Below are positions 719-24,763 of a DNA stretch of 64,000 nucleotides, piece after piece. Where the stretch lies: IMG/VR virus record IMGVR_UViG_3300045789_000880. One strand, 5' to 3'. The translations under genes were made by a program, and so were the position numbers. The DNA comes from an uncultured virus (IMG/VR IMGVR_UViG_3300045789_000880). Lineage: Duplodnaviria > Heunggongvirae > Uroviricota > Caudoviricetes. A model generated the notes under the pieces. It did no database searches, was not told where the DNA came from, and worked only from the letters and a program-made list of their open reading frames with translations. How positions within the stretch are numbered: position 1 is the stretch's first letter; the number at the start of each line of letters is the position of its first letter.

Positions 719-1255
719 TTACACAAAAGGATTAACCTCCGCAGGTGTCCCACTAGGATAGCCCCAAGCAACATATTGGGACTTCATATCATCAGTATCA
801 AGATGCACAAAAGTTTTGCCGACACCAATTCGTTTAAAGCCAACATCACGAGCTACAGAAACTAAGTGATTACGGATAAACGTTGTTTGAGCTTTAATAT
901 CTACAGCTTTACACGTAGGGATTTTATGAGAAGAACTGGAAACACCGCCTACTTTTTTGTTGTGTGATGGACTGCGAGCTCCAGAGTTGATCCATTCAAA
1001 AATGGGATATCCTGTTCTGGCTTCCAGTTGCTGAAGCATAAAGATTAATTGCCTATCCATACAATTGCCAGAGCCAGGAAGATCTGGACTATCAAAAACC
1101 GATAAATCGATAGGTCGTTGATTGATTTGTACCACTCGATTTTTAATTGACTTTGTTTTTGATTTTCTGTAAATAACAAAAGCACCTATCATCAAAATTG
1201 ACAAGGTGCCTAATCCAACATAGATATGTTGATTGTTACTTTTTACCACAGCCAC
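719..1255 (-). CDS. Peptidase M15-family peptidoglycan hydrolase with N-terminal TM anchor
   Basis: INSGARSPSHN..VGG..SSH..AVDI..RIGVGKTFVHLD M15 motifs; hydrophobic N-terminus; GTG start. Confidence 0.85.
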   Translation of the reverse strand: MAVVKSNNQHIYVGLGTLSILMIGAFVIYRKSKTKSIKNRVVQINQRPIDLSVFDSPDLPGSGNCMDRQLIFMLQQLEARTGYPIFEWINSGARSPSHNKKVGGVSSSSHKIPTCKAVDIKAQTTFIRNHLVSVARDVGFKRIGVGKTFVHLDTDDMKSQYVAWGYPSGTPAEVNPFV

Positions 1256-1382
1256 AACCTTTTGCTGTTTCTTTACTTTTCTTGTATCTCAAGAATAAAT
1301 CTGAACTTATTTTTACAGCGCTTAGCAGTATAAACGCCCCAAAAATATAGTTCAATGTGTTATTTCCTTTGTCCACGTTCAT
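1236..1382 (-). CDS. 48-aa membrane peptide ending KGCGCGKK (not in ORF track)
   Basis: Hand translation MNVDKGNNTLNYIFGAFILLSAVKISSDLFLRYKKSKETAKGCGCGKK; fills the gap and overlaps both neighbours. Confidence 0.65.
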   Translation of the reverse strand: MNVDKGNNTLNYIFGAFILLSAVKISSDLFLRYKKSKETAKGCGCGKK

Positions 1383-1701
1383 TGTTTTTTTGTTTGTTAT
1401 ATAATTGAATTTCGGCCTCTAATTGCTCGATGTATCTCTCAAGATCTGTTATACGATCCCTTTGTTTGGTAATCGTTTTATTCATCAGCGTGTTCTTACT
1501 CTCCAGTTGTTTCAACCGCTTCTCCATATTCTCAGACCATAGCTTATAGTTTTCTACTACAAGACTATTTGCCTGAACATTGAGATTACGTATTTCAGCG
1601 CTTTTAAGACGTCTTTGCGTCCCATATTGCAATAGCACTTCAATGAGTTTCCAAAACCCAGTAGCGCCAAGTACAATTGCAAGAATTTTAATTAAGTCCA
1701 T
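1360..1701 (-). CDS. N-terminal TM + coiled-coil protein (holin-like, tentative)
   Basis: Hydrophobic first 25 aa then heptad-rich helix; lies beside the M15 peptidase. Confidence 0.55.
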   Translation of the reverse strand: MDLIKILAIVLGATGFWKLIEVLLQYGTQRRLKSAEIRNLNVQANSLVVENYKLWSENMEKRLKQLESKNTLMNKTITKQRDRITDLERYIEQLEAEIQLYNKQKNNERGQRK

Positions 1702-1741
1702 TAGTTTTTAGATTACGCTTTTGCGAAAGCATCATTAAATT

Positions 1742-2272
1742 TTAAAAGGTGCTTGGCACTCGAGTTCGTCTTACTAAGACTGGCTCAGATTCTTCGATTT
1801 CGTCTTTCTCAATAACATCAGGTGGTAGCACAAATATTCCACCAGAAAACGGTCTGAACTTCAATGGAAGCTCAGCCACATACGGATTCACATTAAAGAT
1901 GATTTCATCTTCTGGATCGTTAAAAATGCCACTTACAAATACACGACCGTCGTCATCTATCGCATAGTAAAACGGTTTTCCTTGACGACTCAACAATGTT
2001 CCTGTATGCTCACCTTGTTGGTTTTTATTGATTGGCGCAGGTAGACTTAATTGCCAGCCAGCAATTTCCTTTCTTCCAGACCTTGAACGCAAACGAATGT
2101 CCTTGCCGATTACGATGTTCTCATTAATCACTGCATAAATGTTGCGCCCAGGAGAGTGCAACATATCTGCATTTAATTGATTAGATGGCACACTCAGCTC
2201 ACGCTGAGTGTTTGCTATTAATCCGCCACCTTGTGCTTTTGGCACATTACTTTGATATCCTACTATACTCAT
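1742..2272 (-). CDS. Hypothetical beta-rich protein
   Basis: ORF coupled to upstream gene by TAATG overlap at 2272. Confidence 0.65.
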   Translation of the reverse strand: MSIVGYQSNVPKAQGGGLIANTQRELSVPSNQLNADMLHSPGRNIYAVINENIVIGKDIRLRSRSGRKEIAGWQLSLPAPINKNQQGEHTGTLLSRQGKPFYYAIDDDGRVFVSGIFNDPEDEIIFNVNPYVAELPLKFRPFSGGIFVLPPDVIEKDEIEESEPVLVRRTRVPSTF

Positions 2273-2691
2273 TACTGTGCTATTATTATTCCGGTTAATA
2301 TGAGTAAACCACCGCCAAAAAACCAGCGCTCCAGCTTACCTCTTTTTATTTGTTTGTGCTGTCTCTTAATGGTCAAGTTCAGCTCTTGAATTTGAGATTC
2401 ATCATTATCCTGAATGACAACAAGATTTTCAACCTTACGCTCCAATTTAAAAATGATGGTATCCTTTTTTTGAGTGAGATACTGCCATCTATAATTGCGT
2501 AATTGCAACGTATCAATAATGCTATCTTGATAAAGACTGAACTCTAATCGCTTTGCTAAATACTTTGATTGTGATAAATCAAAACAGAAATATTTCTTAT
2601 TGTTTAAGTCTTGTACTATCGGCTGTAAATCCTGAGAAATACTCGTATAAGTCCAGAGCAGACATCCTATCAATAGTATTAATTTTTTCAT
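2272..2691 (-). CDS. Signal peptide + coiled coil + C-terminal TM (spanin-like, tentative)
   Basis: MKKLILLIGCLLW leader; C-terminal WFFGGGLLILTGIII; overlaps upstream TM/coiled-coil gene. Confidence 0.55.
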   Translation of the reverse strand: MKKLILLIGCLLWTYTSISQDLQPIVQDLNNKKYFCFDLSQSKYLAKRLEFSLYQDSIIDTLQLRNYRWQYLTQKKDTIIFKLERKVENLVVIQDNDESQIQELNLTIKRQHKQIKRGKLERWFFGGGLLILTGIIIAQ

Positions 2692-2947
2692 CTAATGCGT
2701 TTTGTAAATTTTGAATTGTTTTATGGCTTAAAACTATCCTACCAGTTAAGCTATCAGTTTGCTTTTTAAGCTTTTTTATTTCTTCATCAAGGCTTACGTT
2801 TTTAACAGTAAGCAGTTCGTTTTCCTTTTCAAGTTTTTGAATAGTGTCATTGTTCAAAGCTTCCTCTTGCGGAATGATGTAAAAGATGAGCAAGACAAGA
2901 ATCCCTGCAATCCAAAGCACTAATAAAAAAGGTTTCCAAAACTTCAT
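2597..2947 (-). CDS. N-terminal TM + coiled-coil protein (i-spanin-like, tentative)
   Basis: TM residues about 7-26 followed by a long heptad region. Confidence 0.55.
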   Translation of the reverse strand: MKFWKPFLLVLWIAGILVLLIFYIIPQEEALNNDTIQKLEKENELLTVKNVSLDEEIKKLKKQTDSLTGRIVLSHKTIQNLQNALDEKINTIDRMSALDLYEYFSGFTADSTRLKQ

Positions 2948-3270
2948 TTCTCCTTGGGTTTCGTTTGAAATAGTTTGTTTAAAAATTTCTCTAATAAGAG
3001 TTTATGAAACACCAGCGCAAAAGCAAACGATTGCAACAAACATTCAATCATCTTGATTTGATAACCTCGTATGAAGTACAGAGCGACTCCGTAAATAATG
3101 CCGATGATGAGCACACGATAACGTGTCGCTATTTTAAGCTTAAAAACTTCATAAAAGAAGTTAGTTGAGCGGTAATGGTTGAGACCATAGGCAATGACAA
3201 TGAATGTGAAAATGTAAGCCCAATCCAAGCTGTTTAAATAATTGGAGATGTGTGATAAAATTTCTATCAT
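2944..3270 (-). CDS. Three-TM small membrane protein (holin-like)
   Basis: Three hydrophobic segments and a basic C-tail; ATGA overlaps at both ends. Confidence 0.6.
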   Translation of the reverse strand: MIEILSHISNYLNSLDWAYIFTFIVIAYGLNHYRSTNFFYEVFKLKIATRYRVLIIGIIYGVALYFIRGYQIKMIECLLQSFAFALVFHKLLLEKFLNKLFQTKPKEK

Positions 3271-3515
3271 TTAAATTGTGTTTTTAGGGTTTCTTTTATG
3301 CTTTTAATATCTGTTTGCAGTGCTGCTATTTGATGATTTGGAAATAGATTCTTAGTCAAATGTGCCACGACAATTATAGTTGCTCCCGAAGCTAATAGAG
3401 CGAGAACAATCTTGGTTAATGTCTGATTGGTAAGAGTTACGGTAACTTCCGTCTTGATGCCGTCTTTATCTACCAGACCATCTATTAAATCTTTAATGCT
3501 TCGTTTTTCTGGCAT
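3267..3515 (-). CDS. Small single-TM protein
   Basis: IVLALLASGATIIVVA segment; operon coupling. Confidence 0.65.
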   Translation of the reverse strand: MPEKRSIKDLIDGLVDKDGIKTEVTVTLTNQTLTKIVLALLASGATIIVVAHLTKNLFPNHQIAALQTDIKSIKETLKTQFK

Positions 3516-3996
3516 CCTTATGTTGTTTTTTTATTTTGCCCATATTGCGTTCGTTGAAGAGCTGTTCTGATACTTCTTTTACTTTGTAAAGTCTTAAAAC
3601 ACGTTCTTCAGTAATAGCATCAAATTCATCTGTAATTAAGCCCTTAGCAGCACCGTGATTTTTTAAGAGATACACACGAAGTTGATAAACGCGTTCTCCT
3701 TTACTTCCCATTTTTAATGGAAAATCATCATTGGGTTCTGGCAGTACTTCGGGCTTGATGACGATTGCTTTCTTTTCTTTTTCTAAAGGAACTACAGGCT
3801 TCATTTCAACCACAGAAACTTCTTTTTTCTGCGGAATAGGTTTCTCAACTTTTACAGGTTGAGATTCCTCGACGATTGTAAATTCGGCATCCTCAACCGT
3901 TTCTTCTTTATCTCTAAAGAGGACGTAACCCAACAATCCTAATCCCAAAAGCCCACCAGCTATAAGCAATCCTTTTTGCATTGTTTGTTCGCTCAT
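3493..3996 (-). CDS. TM-anchored protein with peptidoglycan-binding-like domain
   Basis: FPLKMGSKGERVYQLRVYL..DEFDAITE resembles PG_binding_1. Confidence 0.65.
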   Translation of the reverse strand: MSEQTMQKGLLIAGGLLGLGLLGYVLFRDKEETVEDAEFTIVEESQPVKVEKPIPQKKEVSVVEMKPVVPLEKEKKAIVIKPEVLPEPNDDFPLKMGSKGERVYQLRVYLLKNHGAAKGLITDEFDAITEERVLRLYKVKEVSEQLFNERNMGKIKKQHKDARKTKH

Positions 3997-4499
3997 TATT
4001 TCCCAAGACTTGACAGCGCTTTTCGCATTCCTGCGATATCGGCTTGAGTGAATACTGTTTTCTTTAATCGCTTTTGTGCAGCTCTCGAGGTTTTAGGACC
4101 GAATTGCCCATCCACACCATTACGTTTTGGTCCCGTTTTGCCTAAATCTTCTTTGTAGATTTTAAGGTAGCGTTGCAATATTTTTACATCAGGATGACGG
4201 CTTCCGTATTTTATGGGATAGCCCGTTTTTGTGATAACTGGTTTCGTACTTGAACTTGATGATGTTGAAGAGCTCGGAATAAAAGGAGGCGTTTGGTAGC
4301 TGGATGAACTACTTGGAACTGTTGTGATTCCTGATGAAGAAGCGCTCGCTAATTCAGCTTCTTTTTTCTCCTTTTTCTTGGTCATAAAATAATACGCGGT
4401 GGCTGCTCCTGCGAGTACCACTATAACACCACCTACCACTAAAAGGTCTTTGTTCTTAGCCATAAATGACGGATTTGTTGCTGTTGATTTCTGTTTCAT
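3996..4499 (-). CDS. TM-anchored protein, Ser-rich linker, peptidoglycan-binding domain
   Basis: YPIKYGSRHPDVKILQRYL..VDGQFGPKTSRA is a PG_binding_1-type signature. Confidence 0.75.
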   Translation of the reverse strand: MKQKSTATNPSFMAKNKDLLVVGGVIVVLAGAATAYYFMTKKKEKKEAELASASSSGITTVPSSSSSYQTPPFIPSSSTSSSSSTKPVITKTGYPIKYGSRHPDVKILQRYLKIYKEDLGKTGPKRNGVDGQFGPKTSRAAQKRLKKTVFTQADIAGMRKALSSLGK

Positions 4500-4508
4500 T
4501 GGTTCGAT

Positions 4509-5030
4509 TTATGATTGATAATTGGGAAGACGTTGCACATAATTTGAGACGTATTCCTTCATTTCGCTTTGGCTCAAAAAGCTATTCAAGTGTTGCCACA
4601 TATCCTTTTTATAGAGTTGATAGTATGCTTTGGAAAGACTGGCGATTTGCGTTTTATCACGCATTTTTTTACCAAAAACATCTTTGATGGCCTCTTCATC
4701 ATCATTAAAAGTGCCTTTCGCATCCTTAATGATATTAGCCAGTTTCTTAGCCGAGGCATCATCCAATACTTGAATACTTTTTGGCGCTACCCATTTCTGA
4801 ACGTCTGTGAGGTAGTTCATATCAAATGGACTGTTCCAGTTCGGCTCTTGCTTGGTGGTTCCTACATTTCCAGTAGTGACTTGCACGCCAGTTCCAATAG
4901 ATGCGGTTGTTGTAGATTGCATTACTTGTTGCTTTGTACGCTTTCGCGAAAGCGTAACAAAAACACCTATCCCGATAACGCCAAGTCCTGCGCCACCTAT
5001 CATCCACCATCCTGTTTTTGAGATTTCCAT
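4509..5030 (-). CDS. TM-anchored annexin-like domain protein
   Basis: AKGTFNDDEEAIKDVF..KTQIASLSKAYYQLYKKDMWQHL resembles an annexin repeat; paralog of 5032..5520. Confidence 0.6.
   Translation of the reverse strand: MEISKTGWWMIGGAGLGVIGIGVFVTLSRKRTKQQVMQSTTTASIGTGVQVTTGNVGTTKQEPNWNSPFDMNYLTDVQKWVAPKSIQVLDDASAKKLANIIKDAKGTFNDDEEAIKDVFGKKMRDKTQIASLSKAYYQLYKKDMWQHLNSFLSQSEMKEYVSNYVQRLPNYQS
4937..4956. repeat. Longest copy of the dispersed palindrome GCTTTCGCGAAAGC
   Basis: TACGCTTTCGCGAAAGCGTA; other perfect 14-mers at 9270, 11110, 26143, 36356, 48550, 61194. Confidence 0.9.
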
Positions 5031-5031
5031 A

Positions 5032-5520
5032 CTATGCTGTTCTGTAATTAGGTAGCGCCTTCACAATGTTGAGCACTATGGTTATTTCTTCCTTGTCAAA
5101 GCGGTCTTTGAGCGTGTCAATCAGGTTTTTTGAATAGGTTTCTTGGTAGGCTTTTGCTACTTGTGACACCTGAACTTTATCTTTCATCTTGCGGAAGACT
5201 CCGTAGACCTGTTCTTCATCATCGCCACCTTGATACCAGCTTCCCCAAGCTTTGTGAATCTGGTCTGCGTAGCGAGAAGCGGTACTTGTTTTTAGTACCA
5301 ATACTTCGCGATTTACTGTTTGCAACACCTTATTCAAAAAATGAATATCAAAAGCATTTTGTGAGGTCAGTCCGCTTGAAATTGGTTGAATCTGCGCTTG
5401 AATGGCAGTCAGTAATTTGCTGGTGCGTAAGTCACGACTGCGCTTTCTCATTGAGAAAAACGTGGTTCCTATAAATAGTGTTCCTACACTGGCGCCTATG
5501 ATTTTATACGTCATACTCAT
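5032..5520 (-). CDS. TM-anchored annexin-like domain protein
   Basis: GGDDEEQVYGVFRKMKDKVQVSQVAKAYQETYSKNLIDTLKDRF. Confidence 0.6.
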   Translation of the reverse strand: MSMTYKIIGASVGTLFIGTTFFSMRKRSRDLRTSKLLTAIQAQIQPISSGLTSQNAFDIHFLNKVLQTVNREVLVLKTSTASRYADQIHKAWGSWYQGGDDEEQVYGVFRKMKDKVQVSQVAKAYQETYSKNLIDTLKDRFDKEEITIVLNIVKALPNYRTA

Positions 5521-5963
5521 TTGCCCAACAGTTTTAAGCCACGACCTGCAGGTGTGAGCATTGCTAAATCTGATACATCTGCATTTTTTGCTGAATTTTT
5601 AAGAAGTACGATAACACCAACTAACACAACCGCAAGTATCACAGGAACACCAATCGATAATACCTTTGTCAAACTTTTCCCCAAACCAAAAATATTTCCA
5701 CCTATTTCAGATAAATCGGCAATGGTTCTGGTTGCCATATTAGAAACATCAAGGTTGTTTTTATTGAGCCATTTGTTAAAGTTGGGACTTGTCGTACAAG
5801 ATGCCGCACCGTTAGATTTCCAAGTAATGAGCCATATCATTTTTGCATTTTCTTGACCTAATTCGCTTTTTAATTTCGTGAAATAGCTTGTCCAGAAGTC
5901 ACAGGGATCGTCTGCTTCTGGAACCAAAAAAATGCGGTTATCTATGTTTACTTGTATCGCCAT
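5517..5963 (-). CDS. Hypothetical membrane protein
   Basis: TM VLSIGVPVILAVVLVGVIVLL; overlaps both neighbours. Confidence 0.65.
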   Translation of the reverse strand: MAIQVNIDNRIFLVPEADDPCDFWTSYFTKLKSELGQENAKMIWLITWKSNGAASCTTSPNFNKWLNKNNLDVSNMATRTIADLSEIGGNIFGLGKSLTKVLSIGVPVILAVVLVGVIVLLKNSAKNADVSDLAMLTPAGRGLKLLGK

Positions 5964-6151
5964 TAATTGCTTCTGAAAATGGTATTACTGTGTTTTTTAC
6001 TATCGGTTTTACTGAAATCGTTTTGTTCTAAAAATTGCTGAAGGCGAGCTTTGAGTTGCGCTTCTTTTCTCAAGGCGGTACGCTTATCATAATTGATATA
6101 CAGCTGCCTTCCCAACCAAAAACCAACGCCTAATGTCAAAATCGTTTTCAT
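5963..6151 (-). CDS. Small hypothetical protein with hydrophobic N-terminus
   Basis: Abuts 6152 and shares a TAATG overlap at 5963. Confidence 0.6.
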   Translation of the reverse strand: MKTILTLGVGFWLGRQLYINYDKRTALRKEAQLKARLQQFLEQNDFSKTDSKKHSNTIFRSN

Positions 6152-6646
6152 CTACTTTCTCTTGTAAATATTATGTTCAGGAATGTCTAATTCTCTGAGC
6201 CATTCTGCTACTTCAAATCCTGGACTATCTTCATCTGCTTTGGCTGGAATTTCTTTAAAACCTGCAATAATGATATCTGGAAAGCGCAGTATATAGAACT
6301 TTACTATCGCTTCAAGTGCCGCTTTTTGTTCATCGGTACGCGTGTCTTTGTCCCAAGCTTCCTTGAGTGTTCTGCCACCTACATAAGCAATGTGTTTGGC
6401 AATTCCCGTGATACCGTTTTGACCGTGAGAAATACCCCATAAATCAGTAGTTGTTGGGCTGTCCTCACTAATAATGATTTGTAAAAGACCATCCTGAAGC
6501 ACGAGGTAGTCGATACCTGGACGATTCCAACCAAAACCGCCTTTATCTTTTGGTAGCGTGTGCTGATTGATAATGATTTCCTTACCGAAGTCTTTAGCTT
6601 CGCTGGTATCTGTACTTTGTATGATGAGATAATCTACTTTTTGCAT
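6152..6646 (-). CDS. T7-lysozyme-like amidase (Amidase_2 fold), apparently catalytically inactive
   Basis: Fold motifs GW..PG, HIAYVGG, DTRTDEQKAAL kept; Zn-ligand positions read Q, F, S. Confidence 0.75.
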   Translation of the reverse strand: MQKVDYLIIQSTDTSEAKDFGKEIIINQHTLPKDKGGFGWNRPGIDYLVLQDGLLQIIISEDSPTTTDLWGISHGQNGITGIAKHIAYVGGRTLKEAWDKDTRTDEQKAALEAIVKFYILRFPDIIIAGFKEIPAKADEDSPGFEVAEWLRELDIPEHNIYKRK

Positions 6647-6656
6647 CTGTTTTGAT

Positions 6657-7094
6657 TTAAAGGTTTATGGCGGATAAGCGTCTAAAGCCCAATAAGCGAT
6701 AGACAGGATATTTCTTGATGTTGACTTGATTGCTCTGATTACCACCCAAGACGTAGATGTATTTTTTGTCTTCGGAATAGCTAATAAAAAGACCTACGTG
6801 ACCTTTCCAACTGGACTTTTTATGACGCCAGAAGATGACCACATCATTAAGTTTTGGTTTGTTGATTTCGGTACCAACTTGCAGCCAAGAACGCGCAGTA
6901 AGTTTATTACTTCGTTCTACTTTCGTCTTGAGCGCTACCCAATTGATAAAGGCAGAACACCAAGCGGTTTCGTCTGTAGAGACCCAAGTATGACCTATTT
7001 CTTTGAAGTAATTGAGAACAATGGGATTATGTTGATAGCCTACAATTTCGGTTACACCGTATTGGCTTAAGGCTATATTAATAAGTTGTGACAT
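6657..7094 (-). CDS. TIGR02594-family (NlpC/P60/CHAP-like) cell-wall peptidase
   Basis: DETAWCSAFINW, ARSW, GHVG, VLGGNQSNQV. Confidence 0.88.
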   Translation of the reverse strand: MSQLINIALSQYGVTEIVGYQHNPIVLNYFKEIGHTWVSTDETAWCSAFINWVALKTKVERSNKLTARSWLQVGTEINKPKLNDVVIFWRHKKSSWKGHVGLFISYSEDKKYIYVLGGNQSNQVNIKKYPVYRLLGFRRLSAINL

Positions 7095-8667
7095 TGGGTG
7101 ACTCGTCTTTAGGGTTATCGAGCCACGATACTGGAATGCCCTTACTCATTTGGACACCAGTAGATATTCTTGATTTTTCGGGAAGCATATTATACATCTC
7201 GATTTGATTGTAATAAATTAAAAAGCTGACTTGCTGTAATGGATTAATTTTAAAACACCAGGTCACGTGTCCATCTATTAAGTTTCCATCAAAGTCAAAT
7301 ACTTCTGAAACATTTGCAAAGTTTTGAGGACTCTGACTATTACTCAACGAGATGGTTTTACAGATTTCGGTACCAGTGACGGACTTTTCAGTAATCTGTA
7401 GTGCATTGATTCTGTCTTCTCCAGAAGCGACCAGCTTGACGTGACCAACCATCGCAGGATTATGCTGGAAGTCTTCACGGTCTTCATAATATTCTTCGTT
7501 TACTGTTACGGTAGGACCAGATTGTAATCCCGAAATGCTAACCGTATCATCTGCAGAGTTGCTCACGCCTATAATTTCTTCCTTAGAACTAATAGCTAAC
7601 CCAAGTCCAAAACTTTCAGTTTTAATTGTATCTATTATTTGATGCTTTGGACTAATTCTACAAAACGTTTGATCGCCTCGATTCCCCACGTACATTAATC
7701 CATTATGCGGATTATAAGCAATAGCTACAGGATCTTTACCTACGCTTAATTTAGTGATGGCTCCAAATCTTACGGTGTCTAAAACCGAAACAGAATTTGA
7801 ATTATTCAGTACCATATACATATTCTTGGTCACTGGATGGAATTGAAACGAAACAATATCTGCCACTACAGAACCTACGCTTCCTTTTTGATTGCCTTGA
7901 AGATCATACACGTTGATGGCGCCATCCACAATATTGTGAATGTATAAATCACCTGAATCTGTATCAACTCCAAGTGTTCTGGCTCCAGGTACTAAAGGCA
8001 AATTATTTACTCTACGATTGATGCAAATTTTAGAGATTGTTCCCGAAACTAAATTTGCTGTATAATAACATTGATCCACTGGATTATAAACGATATCTAC
8101 TGGACGATTCCCAACAGATTCTCTTCGTAAAATTGTAAAGTCTTGATTTATAAAAACGACTTCATTTGAGACTGAGCAAGCTATCGCAACTACTCCGTAT
8201 TCAACACTATTAGTAGATGTATTTACAGCTAAAGCAACTGGACTAACACTGCCTGGAACGCTAAAAATTGTTGAATTAGAAGCTCTTCTTTCTCCAACTC
8301 CATAACCACTTCCAGCTTGAGAAGTACCTTGTGATAAGTCAATAGTCGTAACAAGTTCTCCTGAAGGGTTAACCACCGAGACAGAATCTCCTAATTGATT
8401 CACTACGTAAAATAAGTCTGTAACAAGATTATAGACCAGCTCTTGTGGTTGCTTATCTACGACTACACTTTTTGTGCCTTCTTCATTTATAAACATAGGA
8501 TCAGTAAGCGGTGTGCAAGCAATTGCACCCCAAAGACATACTTTTCTTATGTCCTTAGTATGGTTTGTAACCGTTACTTGTACAACATCATTCTCTTTTT
8601 GAAGTTGCGCGTAGAAACGTTTTAAACTTGCCTGCTTGTCTAACCAAGTATATGTTGCTCTACTCAT
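7078..8667 (-). CDS. YVTN/YncE-type beta-propeller inserted in a domain homologous to 12033..12944 (candidate spike/penton)
   Basis: VGNRPVDIVYNP and VGKDPVAIAYNP blades; flanking segments align with the candidate capsid (shared SPQNF). Confidence 0.75.
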   Translation of the reverse strand: MSRATYTWLDKQASLKRFYAQLQKENDVVQVTVTNHTKDIRKVCLWGAIACTPLTDPMFINEEGTKSVVVDKQPQELVYNLVTDLFYVVNQLGDSVSVVNPSGELVTTIDLSQGTSQAGSGYGVGERRASNSTIFSVPGSVSPVALAVNTSTNSVEYGVVAIACSVSNEVVFINQDFTILRRESVGNRPVDIVYNPVDQCYYTANLVSGTISKICINRRVNNLPLVPGARTLGVDTDSGDLYIHNIVDGAINVYDLQGNQKGSVGSVVADIVSFQFHPVTKNMYMVLNNSNSVSVLDTVRFGAITKLSVGKDPVAIAYNPHNGLMYVGNRGDQTFCRISPKHQIIDTIKTESFGLGLAISSKEEIIGVSNSADDTVSISGLQSGPTVTVNEEYYEDREDFQHNPAMVGHVKLVASGEDRINALQITEKSVTGTEICKTISLSNSQSPQNFANVSEVFDFDGNLIDGHVTWCFKINPLQQVSFLIYYNQIEMYNMLPEKSRISTGVQMSKGIPVSWLDNPKDESPNVTTY

Positions 8668-9418
8668 TGGCTCTATAATTTTCTATAAAATTGATAACAT
8701 CTTTGGTACGCTCAATTTGGGATGCACCAACCATTTCTGGGTTTTTCCCGAACACTTTTGTTACTGCATACACCGCCTCAATGGTTGGGAAACCATAATC
8801 GAGGTATTGTTTCATTCCGCATAAATCTGCGGTAGTTTGACTGCGTGTATTTAAGAACCAATGACAGCCTTCGTGCGCTAAAATTGCAACGCGAATAGGA
8901 ATGGTGTACGACTTAAACAAACGTTGCGATATTTGAACTCTCGGCATTTTGCGATGCGTTCTCGCTGGTGTAATAAGCTCTGCACCAAAAGGATCAGTTA
9001 TTTTATCTAAATATTGAAACAGAAATTCGTTGTCGGTACTTTCATAAAAACCAGGAGGTACGTAACCTGCTTTTTGCGCAAACTGAATCGCAAATTCTAA
9101 AAAACGATGTTGGTCATCAGTCGCCCAAACTGCCAGCGCTGGCATCTTTTCTATTTTAACATTGACGATTTCAAATGCATCATCATCTACTTCGTTTTTA
9201 TCAAATACTTCCATTTCCAGTACTTCTGGAGAAACTGGCAGTGCGATCACAAATTCTCGTTTTGAGTTCGCTTTCGCGAAAGCGGCTTTTCTTCTAAAAT
9301 AATAGCTATTAGGATGCTCAGGATCATACACACGAATTCCCAACTCAAAAGGCATCAAGGCCTTGATGGTCAGTTTAATCTGAAAGCGTTCTCTATTTGA
9401 TGGAATGGTTGTTATCAC
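8660..9418 (-). CDS. Zincin-like metallopeptidase with beta-rich N-terminal domain
   Basis: ILAHEGCH (HEXXH) followed by QTTAD. Confidence 0.65.
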   Translation of the reverse strand: MITTIPSNRERFQIKLTIKALMPFELGIRVYDPEHPNSYYFRRKAAFAKANSKREFVIALPVSPEVLEMEVFDKNEVDDDAFEIVNVKIEKMPALAVWATDDQHRFLEFAIQFAQKAGYVPPGFYESTDNEFLFQYLDKITDPFGAELITPARTHRKMPRVQISQRLFKSYTIPIRVAILAHEGCHWFLNTRSQTTADLCGMKQYLDYGFPTIEAVYAVTKVFGKNPEMVGASQIERTKDVINFIENYRANE

Positions 9419-9888
9419 TGAGGATATTGTTGGTGTTGCTTATTTTTAGAACTACTCATTACTGCAAGTCCAATGACTCCGACAACTACGACGCCACCTA
9501 AAACATAAACGATGGTAGGAATCCCTTTTTTCTCTTCTTCTGGAACTTCTGGAGCTCCTAAGTCTACAGAGAAGTCCGAAGGCAATTCTGTGTTAGCGCC
9601 ATATCCATCTAAAGGTTTTGGTGTAGTAAACGAATCGATTACTTGACCTATCGCTGTAGCGCCACCAGCTTCTTTATAAATCTGACCTACATCTTTAAAG
9701 AACTTCGTGCGCTTTGCTTTGCGCTCTATTCGTTTTGGAGCAGATCTTCTTATCGTTCTTCTGGCGATACGTTTTGCTTTTCGCTTGGCACGTCTTGCTT
9801 TACGTTTCTTTTTATTTCCAAAAAAGTCATCATAATCGTCATCTTGTAGATGTCGACTTAAAATGCTTTCTGTTTCTCCTAAAATCAT
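9415..9888 (-). CDS. Acidic leader, Arg/Lys-rich tract, C-terminal TM (core-like protein)
   Basis: DDDYDDFFG then KKKRKARRAKRKAKRIARR; TM IVYVLGGVVVVGVIGLAVM. Confidence 0.7.
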   Translation of the reverse strand: MILGETESILSRHLQDDDYDDFFGNKKKRKARRAKRKAKRIARRTIRRSAPKRIERKAKRTKFFKDVGQIYKEAGGATAIGQVIDSFTTPKPLDGYGANTELPSDFSVDLGAPEVPEEEKKGIPTIVYVLGGVVVVGVIGLAVMSSSKNKQHQQYPQ

Positions 9889-9897
9889 AAATGGGAA

Positions 9898-10125
9898 TTA
9901 GATAATTTGCATTATTCTTAAAGTCGAGGCTCCAGGATTGTAGGTAATTTTCTTATAACCTTTACCCACAAAAGGATAGCCCTTTGCTTCGCCAGGAAAT
10001 AAAACCACTCCATTAACCAAAGCTTTTCCTTCTCCCACGTTTTTAATTGAGGCGCTTAAAAAACCATCACTGATTTCTCCTGAGACCGTTGTGTCAATTT
10101 CATTTACTTGTGCTAATATGTCCAT
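9898..10125 (-). CDS. Small beta-strand protein (75 aa; start re-assigned to ATG at 10125)
   Basis: MDILAQVNEI..SASIKNVGEGKALVNGVVLFPGEAKG; ATG preferred over the longer near-cognate start. Confidence 0.6.
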   Translation of the reverse strand: MDILAQVNEIDTTVSGEISDGFLSASIKNVGEGKALVNGVVLFPGEAKGYPFVGKGYKKITYNPGASTLRIMQII

Positions 10126-10660
10126 TTTGTAATTTTTTGTTTTGAATGAATTTATAAATCCCAAACCCTGTTGCACCTACAACTCCCACGACAGCAATTA
10201 CTTTAACCACTTTGCTCACCTTACTGTCAGATTTTATTGCCTTTTTACTGGCTTCTACTTGTGCAGTTTGAAGTTGTCTGACTTCGGCTTTTGCAATAGC
10301 AGATAATGTTGTTTTGACAACCGCTGGATTTGATTTTTTAATCAAGTGACTTATGGGTGTCTTTGTTTTGACTGGTGGTTTTTTAGTCTTGATGACCGCT
10401 TTTTTTGGTTGTACCGTTTTCTTACGAATCACAGGAATACTCTTCACTCGAATAGGCGGTAATTTCATAGGACGACCACGAACGACTCTGGGGCGAATTC
10501 GTACAGGTGGTCTGCTTAATTTTGGTTTAGAAGACCGTCTGCGTTTTAATAGTTTTCGAGTACGACGTTTCTTTCTGCGACGACGACGTATGCCTCCAAA
10601 ATTATCGTAGTCTTCGTCCTGATAAACATCATAATCAGTAAGTGCATAGGTATTTGTCAT
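10100..10660 (-). CDS. Acidic leader, very Arg/Lys-rich, C-terminal TM (core-like protein)
   Basis: QDEDYDNFGG then IRRRRRKKRRTRK; TM VIAVVGVVGATGFGIY. Confidence 0.7.
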   Translation of the reverse strand: MTNTYALTDYDVYQDEDYDNFGGIRRRRRKKRRTRKLLKRRRSSKPKLSRPPVRIRPRVVRGRPMKLPPIRVKSIPVIRKKTVQPKKAVIKTKKPPVKTKTPISHLIKKSNPAVVKTTLSAIAKAEVRQLQTAQVEASKKAIKSDSKVSKVVKVIAVVGVVGATGFGIYKFIQNKKLQNGHISTSK

Positions 10661-10661
10661 T

Positions 10662-11300
10662 TTATCTCGGCATTGGCATCGGTGGCTGTCCGTAAGGCAT
10701 TGGTGGACGTCCCGATTTCATTAATACTACCGCTCCGATACCTAAAACGACCACACCGCCGCCTATCATCAGCATCATATTGGTTTTCTTTTTGGCTGCT
10801 TCGGCTTTCTTCTTTTCTTCCTCACGACGACGCGCTTCCTCTTGTCTGCGTCTTTCTTCTGCCTCACGACGTTTGCGTTCTTGCTCTTCTCGCATACGCT
10901 GCATACGCATTTCCATATCTCTTTTGGCCGCAGCAGCTTGGGCAGATGCTCTTGCTTGTGCAGCTGCTTGAGCTGCGCCACTATTAGATGAACCTCCACG
11001 TTTCTTTTTCTTAAAGAGTCCACCTATAATGCCTACAGCACCTTTGGCAATCGCTCCCCAAAATTGGTCGTTCTCTCGTGATGAAAAGCGAGCGATTAAA
11101 TTTTCTAACGCTTTCGCGAAAGCGTAATCTCCATCTTTTAATAGGTCAACCACTTCATTAACGAGTTGCTCTTTTGATGGTTTACCTTGAAAGAACACAT
11201 TGCTTTTAGCAAGTAATTCTTGAACAGGTTTTGGATAATTGAGAACCAAATAGGTAAGGTTGTCAATCGCCTGATTGTATTGTGATTGTTTATTTGACAT
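10662..11300 (-). CDS. Structural candidate: helical N-domain, NDQFWG motif, charged coil, C-terminal TM
   Basis: N-domain resembles that of 11290..11931; TM MLMIGGGVVVLGIGAVVLM. Confidence 0.7.
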   Translation of the reverse strand: MSNKQSQYNQAIDNLTYLVLNYPKPVQELLAKSNVFFQGKPSKEQLVNEVVDLLKDGDYAFAKALENLIARFSSRENDQFWGAIAKGAVGIIGGLFKKKKRGGSSNSGAAQAAAQARASAQAAAAKRDMEMRMQRMREEQERKRREAEERRRQEEARRREEEKKKAEAAKKKTNMMLMIGGGVVVLGIGAVVLMKSGRPPMPYGQPPMPMPR

Positions 11301-11931
11301 TGCTAAAATTGAATTTTAAACCGTGCCCAACTAAAGCGCCTGCGATGAATACCACTCCAAAAAGTAGGAGTTCATCTTTAGTCACGCTGAAGGTTTTATG
11401 CGGTTGTGGTTTAGGTTCTTCTTCTTTTTTCTTTGCTTCTTTACGAATGCGCACTTCGTTCCAAACCATTTGTACTTCCTGCGCAAGATTCTTGTCATCT
11501 GCTTGAGCGTTAGATCGTTTTACGATGGTCTGGTAATAGCGTTCTAAGTCCTTATCTGAATAACTCTCAAACTGGTTAAGAAAGCTATCTTCATCTCCTG
11601 TCCCTGAATAATTAGAATGTCCACAAGCTTTACAGAAATTACTTTCTGTATTGTAAGAGTCGTTGCTGCAAGCACCACAAAAGTTGTCTTCTTTGGGTTG
11701 ACTGAGCTTTAATATAGCATCCTTATCGGGATGTAATTGTATGAGCTCTTTAATGACTTTACGCCCTTTTTTGCGAGCAAGTTCTTTTATAGCTTCAGCT
11801 AGGTGTTTAGGTTCTTCTGGCGCTTCAAAACCATACTCAAATAACAATTTTGCAACATCATCTGTATTGTGATAGACGATATAATCGATTCTATTTTGAG
11901 CTAGTGAAGGTGTTTGTTTTGAGTTTTTCAT
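11290..11931 (-). CDS. Structural candidate: helical N-domain, CxxC..CxxC, C-terminal TM
   Basis: EDNFCGAC..FCKAC; TM LLLFGVVFIAGALVG. Confidence 0.7.
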   Translation of the reverse strand: MKNSKQTPSLAQNRIDYIVYHNTDDVAKLLFEYGFEAPEEPKHLAEAIKELARKKGRKVIKELIQLHPDKDAILKLSQPKEDNFCGACSNDSYNTESNFCKACGHSNYSGTGDEDSFLNQFESYSDKDLERYYQTIVKRSNAQADDKNLAQEVQMVWNEVRIRKEAKKKEEEPKPQPHKTFSVTKDELLLFGVVFIAGALVGHGLKFNFSNVK

Positions 11932-11947
11932 CTTGTTTTCAATAAGA

Positions 11948-11989
11948 ACAGCCAGAGTGTATGGTTTAGGGGAAACCGACTCTGGCTGT
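11948..11989 (-). terminator. Stem-loop downstream of the candidate capsid gene
   Basis: ACAGCCAGAGT (11948-11958) pairs with ACTCTGGCTGT (11979-11989), inner GGTTT/AAACC; weak U-tract on minus strand. Confidence 0.6.
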
Positions 11990-12032
11990 CTGGTATTAGG
12001 TACAAAGTCTGGACGAGTTCCTTATTACAGGA

Positions 12033-12944
12033 CTATCGTCTACGACGTCTTACCAATCGAGAAACTGGACGTCTCGCCACCGGTTTTCTGACTAGTCTAC
12101 GACGTTTTACAACTCTACGAGTAGGACGTCTCACCACTCTACGTCTAGGACGTACACCTAATGCTGTTGGTCTTTTTCTACGGATTAAATCCAACTGTGG
12201 AAGCCCAGTGGTACGTGGTGCTCTTGAAAGCTCTGCCACGTTGGTACCTTTTAAAAGGTTACCCAGATTGGCTCTCGCTTTAATCGTAAATGTGAATACT
12301 GCCGTTACACCATCTTCTACAGATACACGCAGGGAATCCTGACCTGTAACATCCATCTCGAAGTTATCATCGTCGATGAGTTGTTGGGTAAAGTTTTGAG
12401 GCGAAGTAGCATTACGCGGTTGATACACTCTGGTTGTTTTAGACCCAGAAGCGGTTCTACGGTCAATACGTAACACATTATCAAATTGCAGTGCGTTACT
12501 CACAGAGTATTTCATTCCCGCAATCTTGAACGGATTTGATTTGCTCTCCTCACGTACTTCTTTATGGCTGGACTCTTCAATCTCAACGGTTAGTCCGTTA
12601 GGTTGAGCAGCTTCCGCATTACCACCAAAAATAACTGCCTCTGCACGAGCACCAGACTTGTTAGTCACGACAACCGTAAGGGTTCTATCGTTAGGATCTA
12701 TCTTACCGATGCTCGATTTCGTATAATCATCATAGGCATCATCGTCGTACTCGCCTTCATCAGCGTAGTCGTCGTAATCATCATATTCATCTTCGTACTC
12801 TTCGTCATAGCCGTCTTCTAAACCTTCAAATCCAGGATCGAAGTCGTCTTCTTCATCGTCGTACATCTCGTCGTTATCGTAGTCGTCATACTGATCTTCA
12901 GCAGCTTCCTCGTAACGCATTAATTCGTCGTTATAATCTTTCAT
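12033..12944 (-). CDS. Candidate major capsid/shell protein: acidic N-tail, beta-rich core, Arg-rich C-tail
   Basis: About 75 D/E/Y-rich aa, about 150 aa of alternating beta pattern, about 50 aa R/V/P tail; near the head of the structural operon; fold is inference. Confidence 0.55.
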   Translation of the reverse strand: MKDYNDELMRYEEAAEDQYDDYDNDEMYDDEEDDFDPGFEGLEDGYDEEYEDEYDDYDDYADEGEYDDDAYDDYTKSSIGKIDPNDRTLTVVVTNKSGARAEAVIFGGNAEAAQPNGLTVEIEESSHKEVREESKSNPFKIAGMKYSVSNALQFDNVLRIDRRTASGSKTTRVYQPRNATSPQNFTQQLIDDDNFEMDVTGQDSLRVSVEDGVTAVFTFTIKARANLGNLLKGTNVAELSRAPRTTGLPQLDLIRRKRPTALGVRPRRRVVRRPTRRVVKRRRLVRKPVARRPVSRLVRRRRR

Positions 12945-13017
12945 TTGTTTTCATTGTTTGCCTGTTCAAAAAACAGGATGATACTTTTGTTTTGGTGTCC
13001 AAAAGTGTCTCTAAACA

Positions 13018-13188
13018 CTATTTTTTAGTTGGACTTGCAGTTGCTGGTTTCTTTGCTTCAGCTAATTTTTTAGCTTTCATTTTTTGCATCATCGGAGCAA
13101 TTAAAAATGTTCCTAATGCGATTCCAGCGACGCCTGCTCCCACACAATACAGAATTGGTGTCCAGGCGATGTCGTTCTTGTTTGCCAT
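13018..13188 (-). CDS. 56-aa single-TM protein with basic tail (not in ORF track)
   Basis: Hand translation MANKNDIAWTPILYCVGAGVAGIALGTFLIAPMMQKMKAKKLAEAKKPATASPTKK. Confidence 0.75.
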   Translation of the reverse strand: MANKNDIAWTPILYCVGAGVAGIALGTFLIAPMMQKMKAKKLAEAKKPATASPTKK

Positions 13189-13317
13189 TCGTTTAATTAT
13201 TGATTGATTTCGTTTTGAATTACTTGGCGAGGTCTCTAAACCTTGATTGAGTGCGAAGTTGAGAATGAATGGTAGTTTTTCCGCTGTCGCGAAAGGGACT
13301 TTGGGACGGGATTAAAA

Positions 13318-13356
13318 GTTAAAGGCTCGATATTCTTAGAATATCGAGCCTTTAAC
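13318..13356 (-). terminator. Intrinsic terminator after the SIR2-like gene
   Basis: 19-bp inverted repeat GTTAAAGGCTCGATATTCT/AGAATATCGAGCCTTTAAC followed by TTTTAAT on the minus strand. Confidence 0.8.
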
Positions 13357-13372
13357 AAATTAGCTGAGTAAG

Positions 13373-14500
13373 CTAAATCTTAATTTCTGGTTCCTTTGGA
13401 TTGATGAATTCATCTGGCACAAAAAACTCAGATACAGATTTGTCTTGTACTAAAGATTTGTAATTGATGAAATTTTTAATTTTTTCAAAATCATCCATAG
13501 GGTCTTGATAATAAATGTAGAGAGCCGTATTAGATTTAACAGCATTTAAAATTTGACTATCAATCTTTCTATTGTATTGCGGAAAAGAATAACCAATAAC
13601 GACGAGAATATCTGTTTTATTGGCAATATTCAAAATTTCTGGAGATAGCTCCTTTTCCCAAGAAAATTTAATAGAACTATAATCGTGGTAAGAATTTGAA
13701 CGAACTTTAAATTGGGATAAGTTATCGAACAAGTCTTTCAGATACCTATAAAAGTTAGATTTCAGTACATTTCTTCCAGTTGGATAATACTTTTTATCAT
13801 ACTTGAAGTATCCGTGATGGCCGTTAAGATGATAAAGATTTAGTTCCTCACTATTTTCCTCTAAAAACTTTAATTTAGAATTGACATCATCTAAACACTT
13901 CAAGTTTAAATCTTGATACAAATTGTTAAATGCTAATTGGGTTTGCAAGTCATAATTCCAACTCAATATATTAATATTGGGATTTAAAGAAACTTCACCA
14001 AATTGATCAGATTCAGTAATCATATTTAGCCATTTGATGTATCTAGTATCTATTGGTTGTTTTTTATGAAAGAACTCATTCTCACTTTTTCTAAAAGGCA
14101 TATCATTTTGATAAAACTGCCAAATATCTAGGTAAATACTCAATGTCTTTTTTAATCGATCCAACTCAATAGTATTGTTTCTTTTGAAAAGGATATTTGC
14201 GTAGCTGTCTATAGTATCATTACTTTGAGCTTTTTGAGAGAAGTGTTTTAAATCCGAAATGATTTGATTTAAATATTCAGTTTCTTCAGATGTGAAGCCA
14301 GTGTAATTTGAGTTTTTTAATAATTCTGATGAAAAAATACTAGTTGGATTTTCAATAGCTTGTTTAATGCTATCGGCAACTAACTCCATAGATTTACCTT
14401 GTTCTGACCAGATTGGGACTGAATTATAGCTTGCACCAGCACCTAAAAGATAAGTAACTTTTAAATCCTTTTTTAAATTATATTTTGAGTATTCTATCAT
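13373..14500 (-). CDS. SIR2-like/AbiH-like protein (putative defence NADase)
   Basis: YLLGAGAS, ILSWNYD, LYHLNG, VVIGYSF motifs. Confidence 0.75.
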   Translation of the reverse strand: MIEYSKYNLKKDLKVTYLLGAGASYNSVPIWSEQGKSMELVADSIKQAIENPTSIFSSELLKNSNYTGFTSEETEYLNQIISDLKHFSQKAQSNDTIDSYANILFKRNNTIELDRLKKTLSIYLDIWQFYQNDMPFRKSENEFFHKKQPIDTRYIKWLNMITESDQFGEVSLNPNINILSWNYDLQTQLAFNNLYQDLNLKCLDDVNSKLKFLEENSEELNLYHLNGHHGYFKYDKKYYPTGRNVLKSNFYRYLKDLFDNLSQFKVRSNSYHDYSSIKFSWEKELSPEILNIANKTDILVVIGYSFPQYNRKIDSQILNAVKSNTALYIYYQDPMDDFEKIKNFINYKSLVQDKSVSEFFVPDEFINPKEPEIKI

Positions 14501-14518
14501 ATTTTTTAATCAATATTA

Positions 14519-15997: not shown

Positions 15998-16023
15998 TAA
16001 AAAGTGGATTTACGACAAAAATG

Positions 16024-16170
16024 TAAAATAATTTCCACTAAAACGTATTTTTAGTAAAATAATTTCTGTTAATAGAGATTAAATAATTTCTACTAAAATG
16101 TGTTCAACCTGTGAATCACTAAAATTTATTCCACTAAAATGCTATTTCTTTAAAATATATTCTACTATAA
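16024..16170. repeat. Five imperfect ~20-bp direct repeats, consensus TAAAATAATTTCYACTAAAA
   Basis: Copies starting at about 16024, 16055, 16080, 16120, 16151, upstream of the Fic gene. Confidence 0.65.
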
Positions 16171-17094
16171 AGGACTGTTCAACCCATCCTCGTGATAACG
16201 TAACTTATCTGAAATCAATTTTACAATAGCCTCGTTCTTAGTTTTGTAAATGTTATTTCCGTCAAAATCCTGTTCATTTAAAAGCATCTTTACTTTTCTG
16301 CTTTCTTCTTGGTCGATGAACTTTTTGCAAGCTCTGATGAATGCAGCACGACTGCAACCTTTGATGCGTTGCTCTCGCATATTTACATACACGAAAAAAC
16401 TTTTCTGGATTTTATATTCAAGCTCGGTAATCTTACCCATCGCAAAAGCATTAGAACATAGTTCATATTGCTCATCTACAATAAGCTGTCCGATACGTAC
16501 CATTTGATACTTAGGAATACGCTCCCGATAGCGCGTCACATCATCTACTTGGTGGTGCAATCGCAACCACGTACAGTTTTGCCATTCGGATGTTGTGATT
16601 TTTGCAACCGACTGGTGTGTGAGTACAATGTCAATCCCTTTATGACGCACTGTACAAAGTGCACCAATCATAGACTGTCCTTTTGCACCTGTCATATAAT
16701 GGTCGATATCGTCTAAGACTACGAGACCATTTTTATAGTGTTTCATAATCTTGGTAATGACTTCTTTCTTTTCGTCATTATCCATAGGCGAACCATCTGC
16801 ATTAAAAGGACGAATACGTCTTGAAGAGACTTTGGTAAGTGCCTTCAAATGATTTGGGCTTACGGTTCTGAATTGTGGATAATCATCATCATTAGTGTCA
16901 AAAGCCAAAACCTTACGACCTTTCTTTCCCATCACTAAATGATCCATCATATAGTGTTTGATCTCTTGTTTGTTGCGATAGGTTTTACCAACACCAGTTT
17001 CGCCACAAACGAGCATAATCATTGGTTGACGCTCTAAATCTTCTTTCTTATAGCTTATAGGCTTACGACCACGATTAGATGTAGTTCCTGACAT
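16165..17094 (-). CDS. FtsK/HerA-superfamily (A32/P9-like) genome-packaging ATPase
   Basis: Walker A GETGVGKT, Walker B LVVLDD, VRHKG Arg finger followed by IVLTHQ. Confidence 0.75.
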   Translation of the reverse strand: MSGTTSNRGRKPISYKKEDLERQPMIMLVCGETGVGKTYRNKQEIKHYMMDHLVMGKKGRKVLAFDTNDDDYPQFRTVSPNHLKALTKVSSRRIRPFNADGSPMDNDEKKEVITKIMKHYKNGLVVLDDIDHYMTGAKGQSMIGALCTVRHKGIDIVLTHQSVAKITTSEWQNCTWLRLHHQVDDVTRYRERIPKYQMVRIGQLIVDEQYELCSNAFAMGKITELEYKIQKSFFVYVNMREQRIKGCSRAAFIRACKKFIDQEESRKVKMLLNEQDFDGNNIYKTKNEAIVKLISDKLRYHEDGLNSPL

Positions 17095-18068: not shown

Positions 18069-18072
18069 AGGC

Positions 18073-18525: not shown

Positions 18526-18668
18526 TGGGCAATCGCCGAATTGTTTGACAGGCAAACTACTAAAAGTTGTTTTTCAAAAAGTTTACAAAAGGTTTTTAGA
18601 AGATTTACTTTGGTTTTCACTTGAGTAGGTGTGAATGTTTTTTAACTTGTGGAGTTTACCACTGAATT

Positions 18669-22500: not shown

Positions 22501-22528
22501 ATAGTTAGTATTATATAAATAGTGTGGT

Positions 22529-23989: not shown

Positions 23990-23992
23990 AAC

Positions 23993-24025: not shown

Positions 24026-24037
24026 ATCTCGTCGTTA

Positions 24038-24761: not shown

Positions 24762-24763
24762 AG

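Follow-up and report, generated by a model that had tools for sequence, protein, structure and literature searches.

How does a complete beta-propeller come to lie inside another protein domain, and what kind of structure would make use of it? The question is raised by a gene in a 64,000-nucleotide stretch of DNA catalogued as an uncultured virus of the Caudoviricetes (IMG/VR record IMGVR_UViG_3300045789_000880; hereafter the window, meaning the whole of that stretch). The gene is an open reading frame (ORF) of 529 amino acids, ORF529 (7078..8667, minus strand), which lies, together with ORF303 (12033..12944, minus strand, 303 amino acids), among the densely packed and mostly small genes that occupy the minus strand between 719 and 18555. 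An initial annotation took ORF529 to be a paralog of ORF303, a candidate capsid protein, interrupted by a propeller, and proposed that it is a minor capsid or vertex protein displaying a receptor-binding head. Our data establish the paralogy and the interruption; display on a particle is a reading that has to be weighed against others.

A jelly roll divided by a propeller

Three alignments underlie the analysis: A1 comprises 26 relatives of ORF303, A2 comprises 28 relatives of ORF529, and A3 has 71 rows that include distant representatives. To obtain the latter, 1.84 billion representatives were searched exhaustively by profile; the ORF303 superfamily there amounted to 239 representative proteins at E <= 1e-3, mostly of 200–280 amino acids. 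The parts of the two proteins, with the basis for each, are as follows.

7078..8667, minus strand: ORF529, jelly-roll base split by a 7-bladed beta-propeller (AlphaFold2 model; homologues in 66 of 80 related loci)
8593..8646, minus strand: ORF529 residues 8–25, N-terminal helix (DSSP of the model; A2)
8512..8610, minus strand: ORF529 residues 20–52, N-terminal base piece with two strands, corresponding to ORF303 residues 80–112 (hhalign; matching strands in the models)
7519..8493, minus strand: ORF529 residues 59–383, inserted 7-bladed YVTN/YncE-like propeller, an exchangeable cassette (model, Foldseek, TIGR02276, relatives)
7186..7518, minus strand: ORF529 residues 384–494, C-terminal base piece with a helix and six strands, corresponding to ORF303 residues 117–231 (BLASTP; hhalign)
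7081..7185, minus strand: ORF529 residues 495–529, tail conserved in close relatives only (predicted local distance difference test, pLDDT, below 50; segment identities)
12714..12944, minus strand: ORF303 residues 1–77, acidic Tyr-rich tail with 40 D/E, 3 K/R and 13 Y (composition; low pLDDT)
12180..12713, minus strand: ORF303 residues 78–255, jelly-roll core, the unsplit paralog (pLDDT; 239 relatives; generic jelly-roll fold matches)
12036..12179, minus strand: ORF303 residues 256–303, Arg-rich tail with 25 K/R and no D/E in 48 residues (composition)

Pairwise BLASTP of the two proteins recovers the C-terminal match only (ORF529 residues 384–450 on ORF303 residues 117–185, 29% identity, E 5e-6); because residues 1–60 of ORF529 gave no BLASTP alignment to ORF303, the N-terminal match is seen at the profile level only. 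Compared profile to profile, the whole families likewise align solely in the part that follows the propeller (probability 81.8%, E 1.1e-5, 107 columns). Once the propeller columns had been excised from the ORF529 family profile, retaining residues 1–52 and 384–529, hhalign matched it to the wide family A3 with a probability of 98.6% (E 1e-15, 148 columns) and to the close family A1 with a probability of 96.2% (E 2.5e-9). The alignment is collinear – residues 20–52 and 384–499 of ORF529 run onto residues 80–235 of ORF303 – and the core match on both sides of the insert places ORF529 within the ORF303 superfamily. Taken alone, the C-terminal piece scored 81.4 (E 1.5e-12) and the N-terminal piece 28.6 (E 1.3e-4, probability 53%, placed at ORF303 residues 80–113); adding the second to the first raised the hhalign score from 81.4 to 105.6. 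When every stop-to-stop ORF of at least 50 amino acids in the window was scanned with a hidden Markov model (HMM) of A3, ORF303 emerged at 1.4e-91 and ORF529 at 1.8e-10, the next best ORF standing at E 0.64. The four word matches on which the initial annotation had based its claim, before and behind the propeller, all fall in the hhalign register, and the alignment with the propeller removed, proposed there as a check, bears that claim out. ORF529 is a diverged paralog of ORF303 whose jelly roll is split by a propeller in a loop; the insertion site is the loop after the second strand, equivalent to ORF303 residues 105–117.

Predicted structures tell the same story. In the AlphaFold2 model of ORF529 (A2 as input, mean pLDDT 81.6) a helix (residues 8–25) and two strands (27–35 and 41–45) precede 27 propeller strands located between residues 59 and 385; behind these come a short strand, a helix (392–402), six strands reaching residue 488 and a disordered tail. 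The order of elements in the ORF529 base is repeated in the model of ORF303 (A3 as input), where the core (residues 80–250) has a pLDDT of 95–98 and the acidic N-terminal and basic C-terminal tails are of low confidence; neither tail is present in distant ORF303 relatives. As a stand-in for three-dimensional superposition we compared DSSP classes along the profile alignment: the two independent AlphaFold models agree at 120 of the 148 aligned positions (81%), against 28–39% in six shifted registers. For the superposition of the split domain on the ORF303 core, whose failure the initial annotation had named as a refutation, this agreement of secondary-structure classes serves as a proxy.

The insert itself, of about 327 residues (59–385), is at the level of fold a 7-bladed propeller of the YVTN type. 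Foldseek matches it to WDR5, to the archaeal S-layer YVTN protein 1l0q (E 7.8e-15, TM by target 0.60) and to E. coli YncE (3vgz; E 2.6e-14, TM by target 0.75). The YVTN repeat model TIGR02276 picks out one repeat, at residues 283–319, with a score (26.4 bits, E 5.1e-6) below its cut-off of 27.85. For the jelly-roll core of ORF303 no specific nearest neighbour emerges: the VIA structure search descends from Z 5.9 for the best match (PR772 chain O, a penton protein) to 4.5, through a list of penton and turret proteins, including PM2 P1 and the STIV turret, plant-virus capsids, nucleoplasmin cores and Ena pilus subunits. Foldseek found no match to this core in the PDB at E <= 1e-3; against BFVD there were three at the same threshold, mostly capsid-like. 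Prediction of a complex between ORF529 (A2) and the ORF303 core (A3, residues 76–260) gave 0.00 in two runs made without controls, and counts neither for nor against their association.

Exchange of the propeller and recurrence of the architecture

A critical issue is whether base and propeller share a history. Homologues are plentiful, many of them in marine Bacteroidota: ORF303 has 353 clusters at E <= 1e-3, with 62–99% identity among the 120 matches listed, and ORF529 has 83, named 'YncE family' or 'YVTN family beta-propeller protein' in their sources. We retained ORF303 relatives from 80 loci of Bacteroidota genomes; by tblastn, 66 of these loci carry a homologue of ORF529, always after a gene for a protein with an HExxH motif and before the CHAP hydrolase gene. 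Sixty-five homologues were aligned segment by segment (L052, at a contig end and 359 amino acids long, was left out), and the mean identity to the ORF529 of the window is 48% in the N-terminal base piece, 35% in the propeller, 55% in the C-terminal base piece and 36% in the tail.

The clearest evidence comes from two loci, L004 and L005. Their proteins are 73–76% identical to ORF529 in the N-terminal base piece, 91–95% in the C-terminal piece and 91–97% in the tail, yet 18% in the propeller, while the neighbouring ORF303, HExxH protein and CHAP hydrolase are 87–99% identical to those of the window. At the level of DNA, similarity is lost from 7515–7517 to 8519–8525 – that is, from about residue 385 to about residue 50 – and the breaks in the two loci coincide. 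Six further loci show the same disparity, with 52–60% identity in the base against 17–18% in the propeller. The propeller is exchanged between elements as a cassette whose breakpoints lie at domain borders, and the variability of the insert among relatives, which the initial annotation had proposed as a check, is what a binding head would lead one to expect. Fourteen loci are without a homologue of ORF529, several of them ending at a contig border. The idea that an unsplit base stands in place of the missing protein was considered and rejected: the ORF found there in L055 is an amidase, and the ORFs that follow it match no profile.

The architecture recurs in more distant relatives. A metagenome contig (L091, of which 20.6 kb was analysed) carries, in order, the ATPase described below (35% identical), an ORF303-like protein (37%), the HExxH protein (30%) and a protein of 543 amino acids (P0369) with seven 'VWEY'-type repeats. 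The last 100 residues of P0369 match A3 from position 125 onward (probability 97.1%, E 6.7e-11), and its N-terminal base piece is not detectable from the single sequence; read by eye, its repeats suggest a propeller that differs from that of ORF529 and occupies the same insertion site. The contig holds five paralogs recognized by the A3 HMM (439, 229, 227, 550 and 192 amino acids), with the ATPase and HExxH genes ordered as in the window. In another relative, P0297 (603 amino acids), a propeller-like insert of about 330 residues lies between HMM positions 115 and 119, a different loop from that of ORF529, where the insert lies between positions 73 and 81. On the assumption that the elements of the ORF303 model correspond to strands B to I of a standard jelly roll, the inserts would sit in the BC and DE loops, which are expected at the FG/HI end of the fold, opposite the N and C termini. 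Across 83 loci, 65 have exactly two jelly-roll matches to the A3 HMM. For one distant relative the source on record is a 'viral metagenome'.

Among the metagenomic relatives of ORF303 we also observed a protein of 336 amino acids (P0310) with two jelly-roll domains in tandem, HMM positions 50–198 at residues 32–175 and positions 51–186 at residues 194–324. It is possible that this protein is a natural intermediate between single and double jelly rolls.

The surrounding module and the mobile element

The genes around ORF529 form a module in which 14 of 23 proteins have one membrane-helix-like segment, and several are tail-anchored and very basic. Those that bear on function are listed here.

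719..1255, minus strand: membrane-anchored M15 peptidase, the last gene of the element (Pfam 5.1e-12)
6152..6646, minus strand: amidase, downstream of ORF529 (phrog_822, 5.9e-16)
6657..7094, minus strand: CHAP/NlpC-like hydrolase, directly downstream of ORF529 (phrog_1259, 3.8e-32)
8660..9418, minus strand: protein of 252 amino acids with an HExxH motif, its 3' end overlapping the start of ORF529 by 8 bases (ORF list; related loci)
9415..11931, minus strand: five genes after ORF303 (translations; hydropathy scan)
16165..17094, minus strand: P-loop ATPase of Zot / A32 / HerA-FtsK type (Pfam, PHROGs and Atlas; assignment on weak Pfam scores)

In related loci the HExxH gene immediately precedes the homologue of ORF529, and the motif is kept in all 72 homologues that cover the site. 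The protein matches no family in Pfam, PHROGs or NCBIfam; its motif makes it a candidate zinc peptidase tied to ORF529. Four consecutive genes of the five at 9415..11931 encode C-terminally anchored single-pass proteins, three of them having soluble parts of low complexity, with runs of R and K, that are strongly basic or charged. Together with the Arg-rich tail of ORF303, these tail-anchored basic proteins look like DNA- or lipid-neutralizing parts.

The ATPase matches Pfam Zot (3.3e-6), Pox_A32 (4.9e-5) and phrog_2666 (1.4e-6); its nearest named Atlas clusters (0.98) have Zot/DUF87 domains and are labelled 85–100% viral, and a sequence search of the PDB gave chance-level cytochrome b5 rows only. 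In relatives without the cargo insert it adjoins the ORF303 gene. Mapping by tblastn in L003 places the ATPase match from 8310 and the ORF303 match from 10001, the ATPase being the next mapped gene upstream; in L091 the ATPase ORF (8791..9654) likewise lies upstream of the ORF303-like ORF (9992..10660). In both loci, then, a jelly-roll gene sits beside an ATPase of the A32/FtsK-HerA packaging type, the two being separated in the window by a cargo insert of 2.8 kb. A protein of 324 amino acids next to the ATPase (17094–18068, minus strand) is strongly acidic, like the N-terminal tail of ORF303. The viral-type ATPase, the membrane proteins and three peptidoglycan hydrolases (amidase, CHAP and M15) are surroundings that suit the particle supposed by the initial annotation.

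The module is part of a conserved, mobile and integrative element of marine Bacteroidota. Comparison of the window with G002, the genome that contains L003, reveals collinear blocks at 720–13323, 16167–18650, 24053–27088, 51397–60177 and 60584–64000. The left end lies at 720–723: similarity to G002 starts at 720, and contigs from three sequencing runs match from 723 with flanks that are all different. In G002 the element measures about 42 kb and has at its far end a large serine recombinase of 549 amino acids, followed by sulfur-metabolism genes; in the window, with its defence cargo, it exceeds 63 kb. Between the blocks are three variable slots, whose cargo differs between near-identical elements.

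13323–16167: ORF of 375 amino acids and a Fic protein
18650–24053: OLD-type ATPase, UvrD and NERD, which we read as Gabija-like
27088–51397: 24-kb island with Hsp70-like protein, kinase-AAA, TerB, type I restriction-modification, YhcG nuclease, two GmrSD and SLATT

The conserved core includes an Sbno-like helicase of 1419 amino acids and an N6-methylase-domain protein of 914 amino acids (52565–59983, minus strand), which match PHROG 14770 (very large, function unknown); the helicase was linked to ORF303 in all five genomes checked. Kordia carries three to four copies, and a Tenacibaculum maritimum record also has a homologue of ORF529. An ORF303 with 100% identity occurs in records that bear the names Patiriisocius, Ulvibacter, Winogradskyella, Nonlabens and Algibacter (L001–L003, L006 and L007), which points to recent spread between genera. 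Near-identical DNA from part of the window is present in 20 of 24 runs listed, from 13 studies.

One further feature of the window is a perfect 14-base palindrome, GCTTTCGCGAAAGC, of which there are seven exact copies (4940–4953, 9270–9283, 11110–11123, 26143–26156, 36356–36369, 48550–48563 and 61194–61207) and four with one mismatch, against an expectation of 0.02. The copies lie within genes and are read in at least two frames (AFAKA, LSRKR), and many unrelated metagenome contigs stack on the sites at 4940, 9270 and 11110. It looks like a DNA-level motif common in these bacteria.

A possible particle, a possible envelope apparatus and known systems

What, then, is the structure to which ORF529 belongs? 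We consider it probable that the module encodes a virus or a virus-derived particle, and lean, by a narrower measure, toward ORF529 being a vertex, spike or tower subunit of such a virus-like particle. The base would be the assembly module, placing ORF529 in an oligomeric jelly-roll lattice or ring formed with its own copies or with ORF303; at the loop end of the sandwich the propeller would stand out as a binding head open to exchange, and recombination that swaps propellers would retarget binding. The exposure of the insertion loop, the oligomerization of the base, receptor binding by the head and the existence of the particle itself are all suppositions of this model. The particle would most likely be made by a virus-like element of marine Bacteroidota that is temperate, tailless and probably membrane-containing. 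The display on a minor capsid or vertex protein envisaged in the initial annotation gains from the paralogy, from the position of the propeller in a loop and from the exchangeability of the insert; it loses from the fact that ORF529 is dispensable in some elements.

Several observations weigh against a particle, or against this place for ORF529 in it. The particle itself is a prediction. Scans of IMG/VR with A1, P0225, P0213 and P0250 found no relatives, and tblastn of 50,697 phage records found nothing for ORF303, the ORF529 base, the ATPase, the DUF7192 protein or P0368, the sole match to ORF529 being the propeller stretch of one unannotated record. Among the scanned ORFs of the window and of the G002 end, Pfam and PHROGs reveal no major capsid of known type, portal, terminase or tail gene: the match to phrog_2666, 'terminase large subunit', is weak and falls on the P-loop of the small ATPase, and many ORFs have no family at all. 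The element is much larger than the initial annotation had assumed, its core measuring about 42 kb in a relative and the whole, with cargo, exceeding 63 kb in the window; its Sbno-like helicase and large methylase would also fit an element resembling an integrative and conjugative element (ICE). Sixteen of the 66 homologues of ORF529, the window's own counted, have in the hydropathy scan a hydrophobic, membrane-helix-like N-terminal segment instead of the helix, so a cell-envelope protein also fits. At least four loci (L055, L059, L080 and L074) keep the genes around the usual position of ORF529 without a homologue of it, which means that ORF529 can be lost and is not an obligate component of a shell. 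Finally, the contigs of 13–31 kb from RNA libraries may be DNA; the intervals these runs leave uncovered (13341–14674 and 18677–20000) are cargo regions and carry no evidential weight.

On the strength of such observations one might suppose that the element is ICE-like and non-viral, the membrane module being an envelope apparatus for DNA transfer or adhesion, ORF529 a surface or periplasmic adhesin with jelly-roll oligomerization, and ORF303 a nucleoplasmin-like, charge-balancing DNA chaperone. A serine recombinase, the helicase, the methylase and several slots for defence cargo, in an element whose core is of about 42 kb, would suit this supposition, as would the lack of relatives in the viral collections searched, the membrane-helix-like segments just mentioned, the acidic tract and basic tail of ORF303 and the fit of ORF303 to nucleoplasmin cores and Ena pilus subunits, which is as good as its fit to capsid proteins. 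It is nonetheless unlikely, if not strikingly so: scans of Pfam, PHROGs and NCBIfam found no conjugation (Tra or type IV secretion), relaxase or pilus-assembly family; the hydropathy scan detects no signal-peptide-like or membrane segment in ORF303 or in the ORF529 of the window; the clusters nearest the ATPase bear largely viral labels; and the lysins with which the module ends (amidase, CHAP and M15) resemble phage enzymes of lysis or entry. A chance resemblance between ORF303 and the flanks of an ordinary host propeller protein of the YncE family is scarcely credible. The source names of the homologues and the superposition of the propeller on YncE might suggest it, but the flanks form one domain homologous to ORF303, 66 of 80 loci have the gene at one and the same position of a mobile element, and the NCBIfam equivalog for YncE (NF052280) scores 17.9 bits (E 0.001, residues 278–369 only) against a cut-off of 400; the propeller-free hhalign comparison, the HMM scan of the window and this NCBIfam score all contradict such a reading.

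A virion might also be built differently, with ORF303 and ORF529 as the small and large major capsid proteins – single vertical jelly rolls in the manner of the Sphaerolipoviridae – and the propeller as a capsomer tower. The prevalence of loci with exactly two jelly-roll matches, the upstream position and shared orientation of the ATPase, and the standing of ORF303 as the best conserved protein of the module are what such a shell would predict. Yet a Sphaerolipoviridae-type arrangement has both jelly rolls in every genome and their genes adjacent, and here ORF529, with homologues in 66 of the 80 loci, is missing from at least four that are otherwise intact and is encoded 3.4 kb from ORF303; a tower only 18% identical on near-identical shells would have to be tolerated in hundreds of lattice copies; and neither PHROGs nor the phage records provide a sequence link to known sphaerolipovirus proteins. 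We judge this arrangement decidedly improbable, and return to ORF529 as a vertex, spike or tower subunit.

A fuller picture, which we offer tentatively and would not press, is that of a provirus of an undescribed lineage: temperate, tailless and membrane-containing, with a shell of single jelly-roll paralogs, packaging of the Zot/HerA type, a propeller on the vertex or spike as a host-range cassette, and slots that move defence islands between genera. Were display by ORF529 true, it would be a clean natural case of domain insertion for display, in which a whole 7-bladed propeller is replaced at the domain borders, and one that recurs at two loops of one fold. It would also mean that a family of integrated elements has been overlooked by viral catalogues. 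Because the elements carry large defence islands, they may play a role in gene flow and phage resistance among marine Flavobacteriia. The tandem domains of P0310 and the multi-paralog locus of L091 bear on the origin of double jelly-roll capsid proteins from single ones, and the design of a base with a loaded loop is a possible scaffold for the display of folded domains.

A full-text search of the literature, covering listings and abstracts, found no paper on this element or on a propeller inserted in a jelly-roll shell protein. Parallels do exist. At the vertex of PRD1 and PR772, according to excerpts of PMC9719478, the penton protein P31 forms a heteropentamer with the base of the spike protein P5 – a pair of paralogs sharing one ring. 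The same excerpts describe P1 of PM2 and P13 of PhiCjT23 as single proteins that serve as both penton base and external spike, the host-binding part resting on a shell-integral base. In those two proteins the base is N-terminal and the spike C-terminal, whereas the head of ORF529 is a loop insertion; their viruses, moreover, have genomes of 9–10 kb and double jelly-roll capsid proteins, whereas the present element measures about 42 kb and yielded no double jelly-roll protein. A further parallel is the penton base of adenovirus, in which insertions in jelly-roll loops make up a receptor-binding crown. The abstract of PMC7616808 names, for the penton base, a jelly-roll multimerization domain and a distal 'crown' domain. 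As in ORF529, a distal domain is borne on a jelly roll, but adenovirus has a eukaryotic host, its crown is no propeller and the sequences are unrelated.

In the Sphaerolipoviridae (P23-77, with VP16 and VP17, SH1 and HHIV-2) the shell is made from two single jelly-roll capsid proteins, one of which carries a tower. The likeness lies in paralogous single jelly rolls encoded next to a packaging ATPase, one with an additional upper domain; the difference is that both sphaerolipoviral proteins are obligate and their genes adjacent. The propeller of ORF529 has the 7-bladed fold of E. coli YncE and of the archaeal S-layer YVTN protein, but in these proteins it is free-standing or N-terminal, whereas in ORF529 it is embedded in the loop of another domain and swaps as a cassette. 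At the level of sequence the host element appears unlike any described virus. The union in one protein of a shell-integral base and an external host-binding part is already known from PM2 P1 and PhiCjT23 P13 (PMC9719478); what differs here is a complete propeller lodged inside a loop, its exchange at the domain borders, and the use of two insertion loops within one superfamily.

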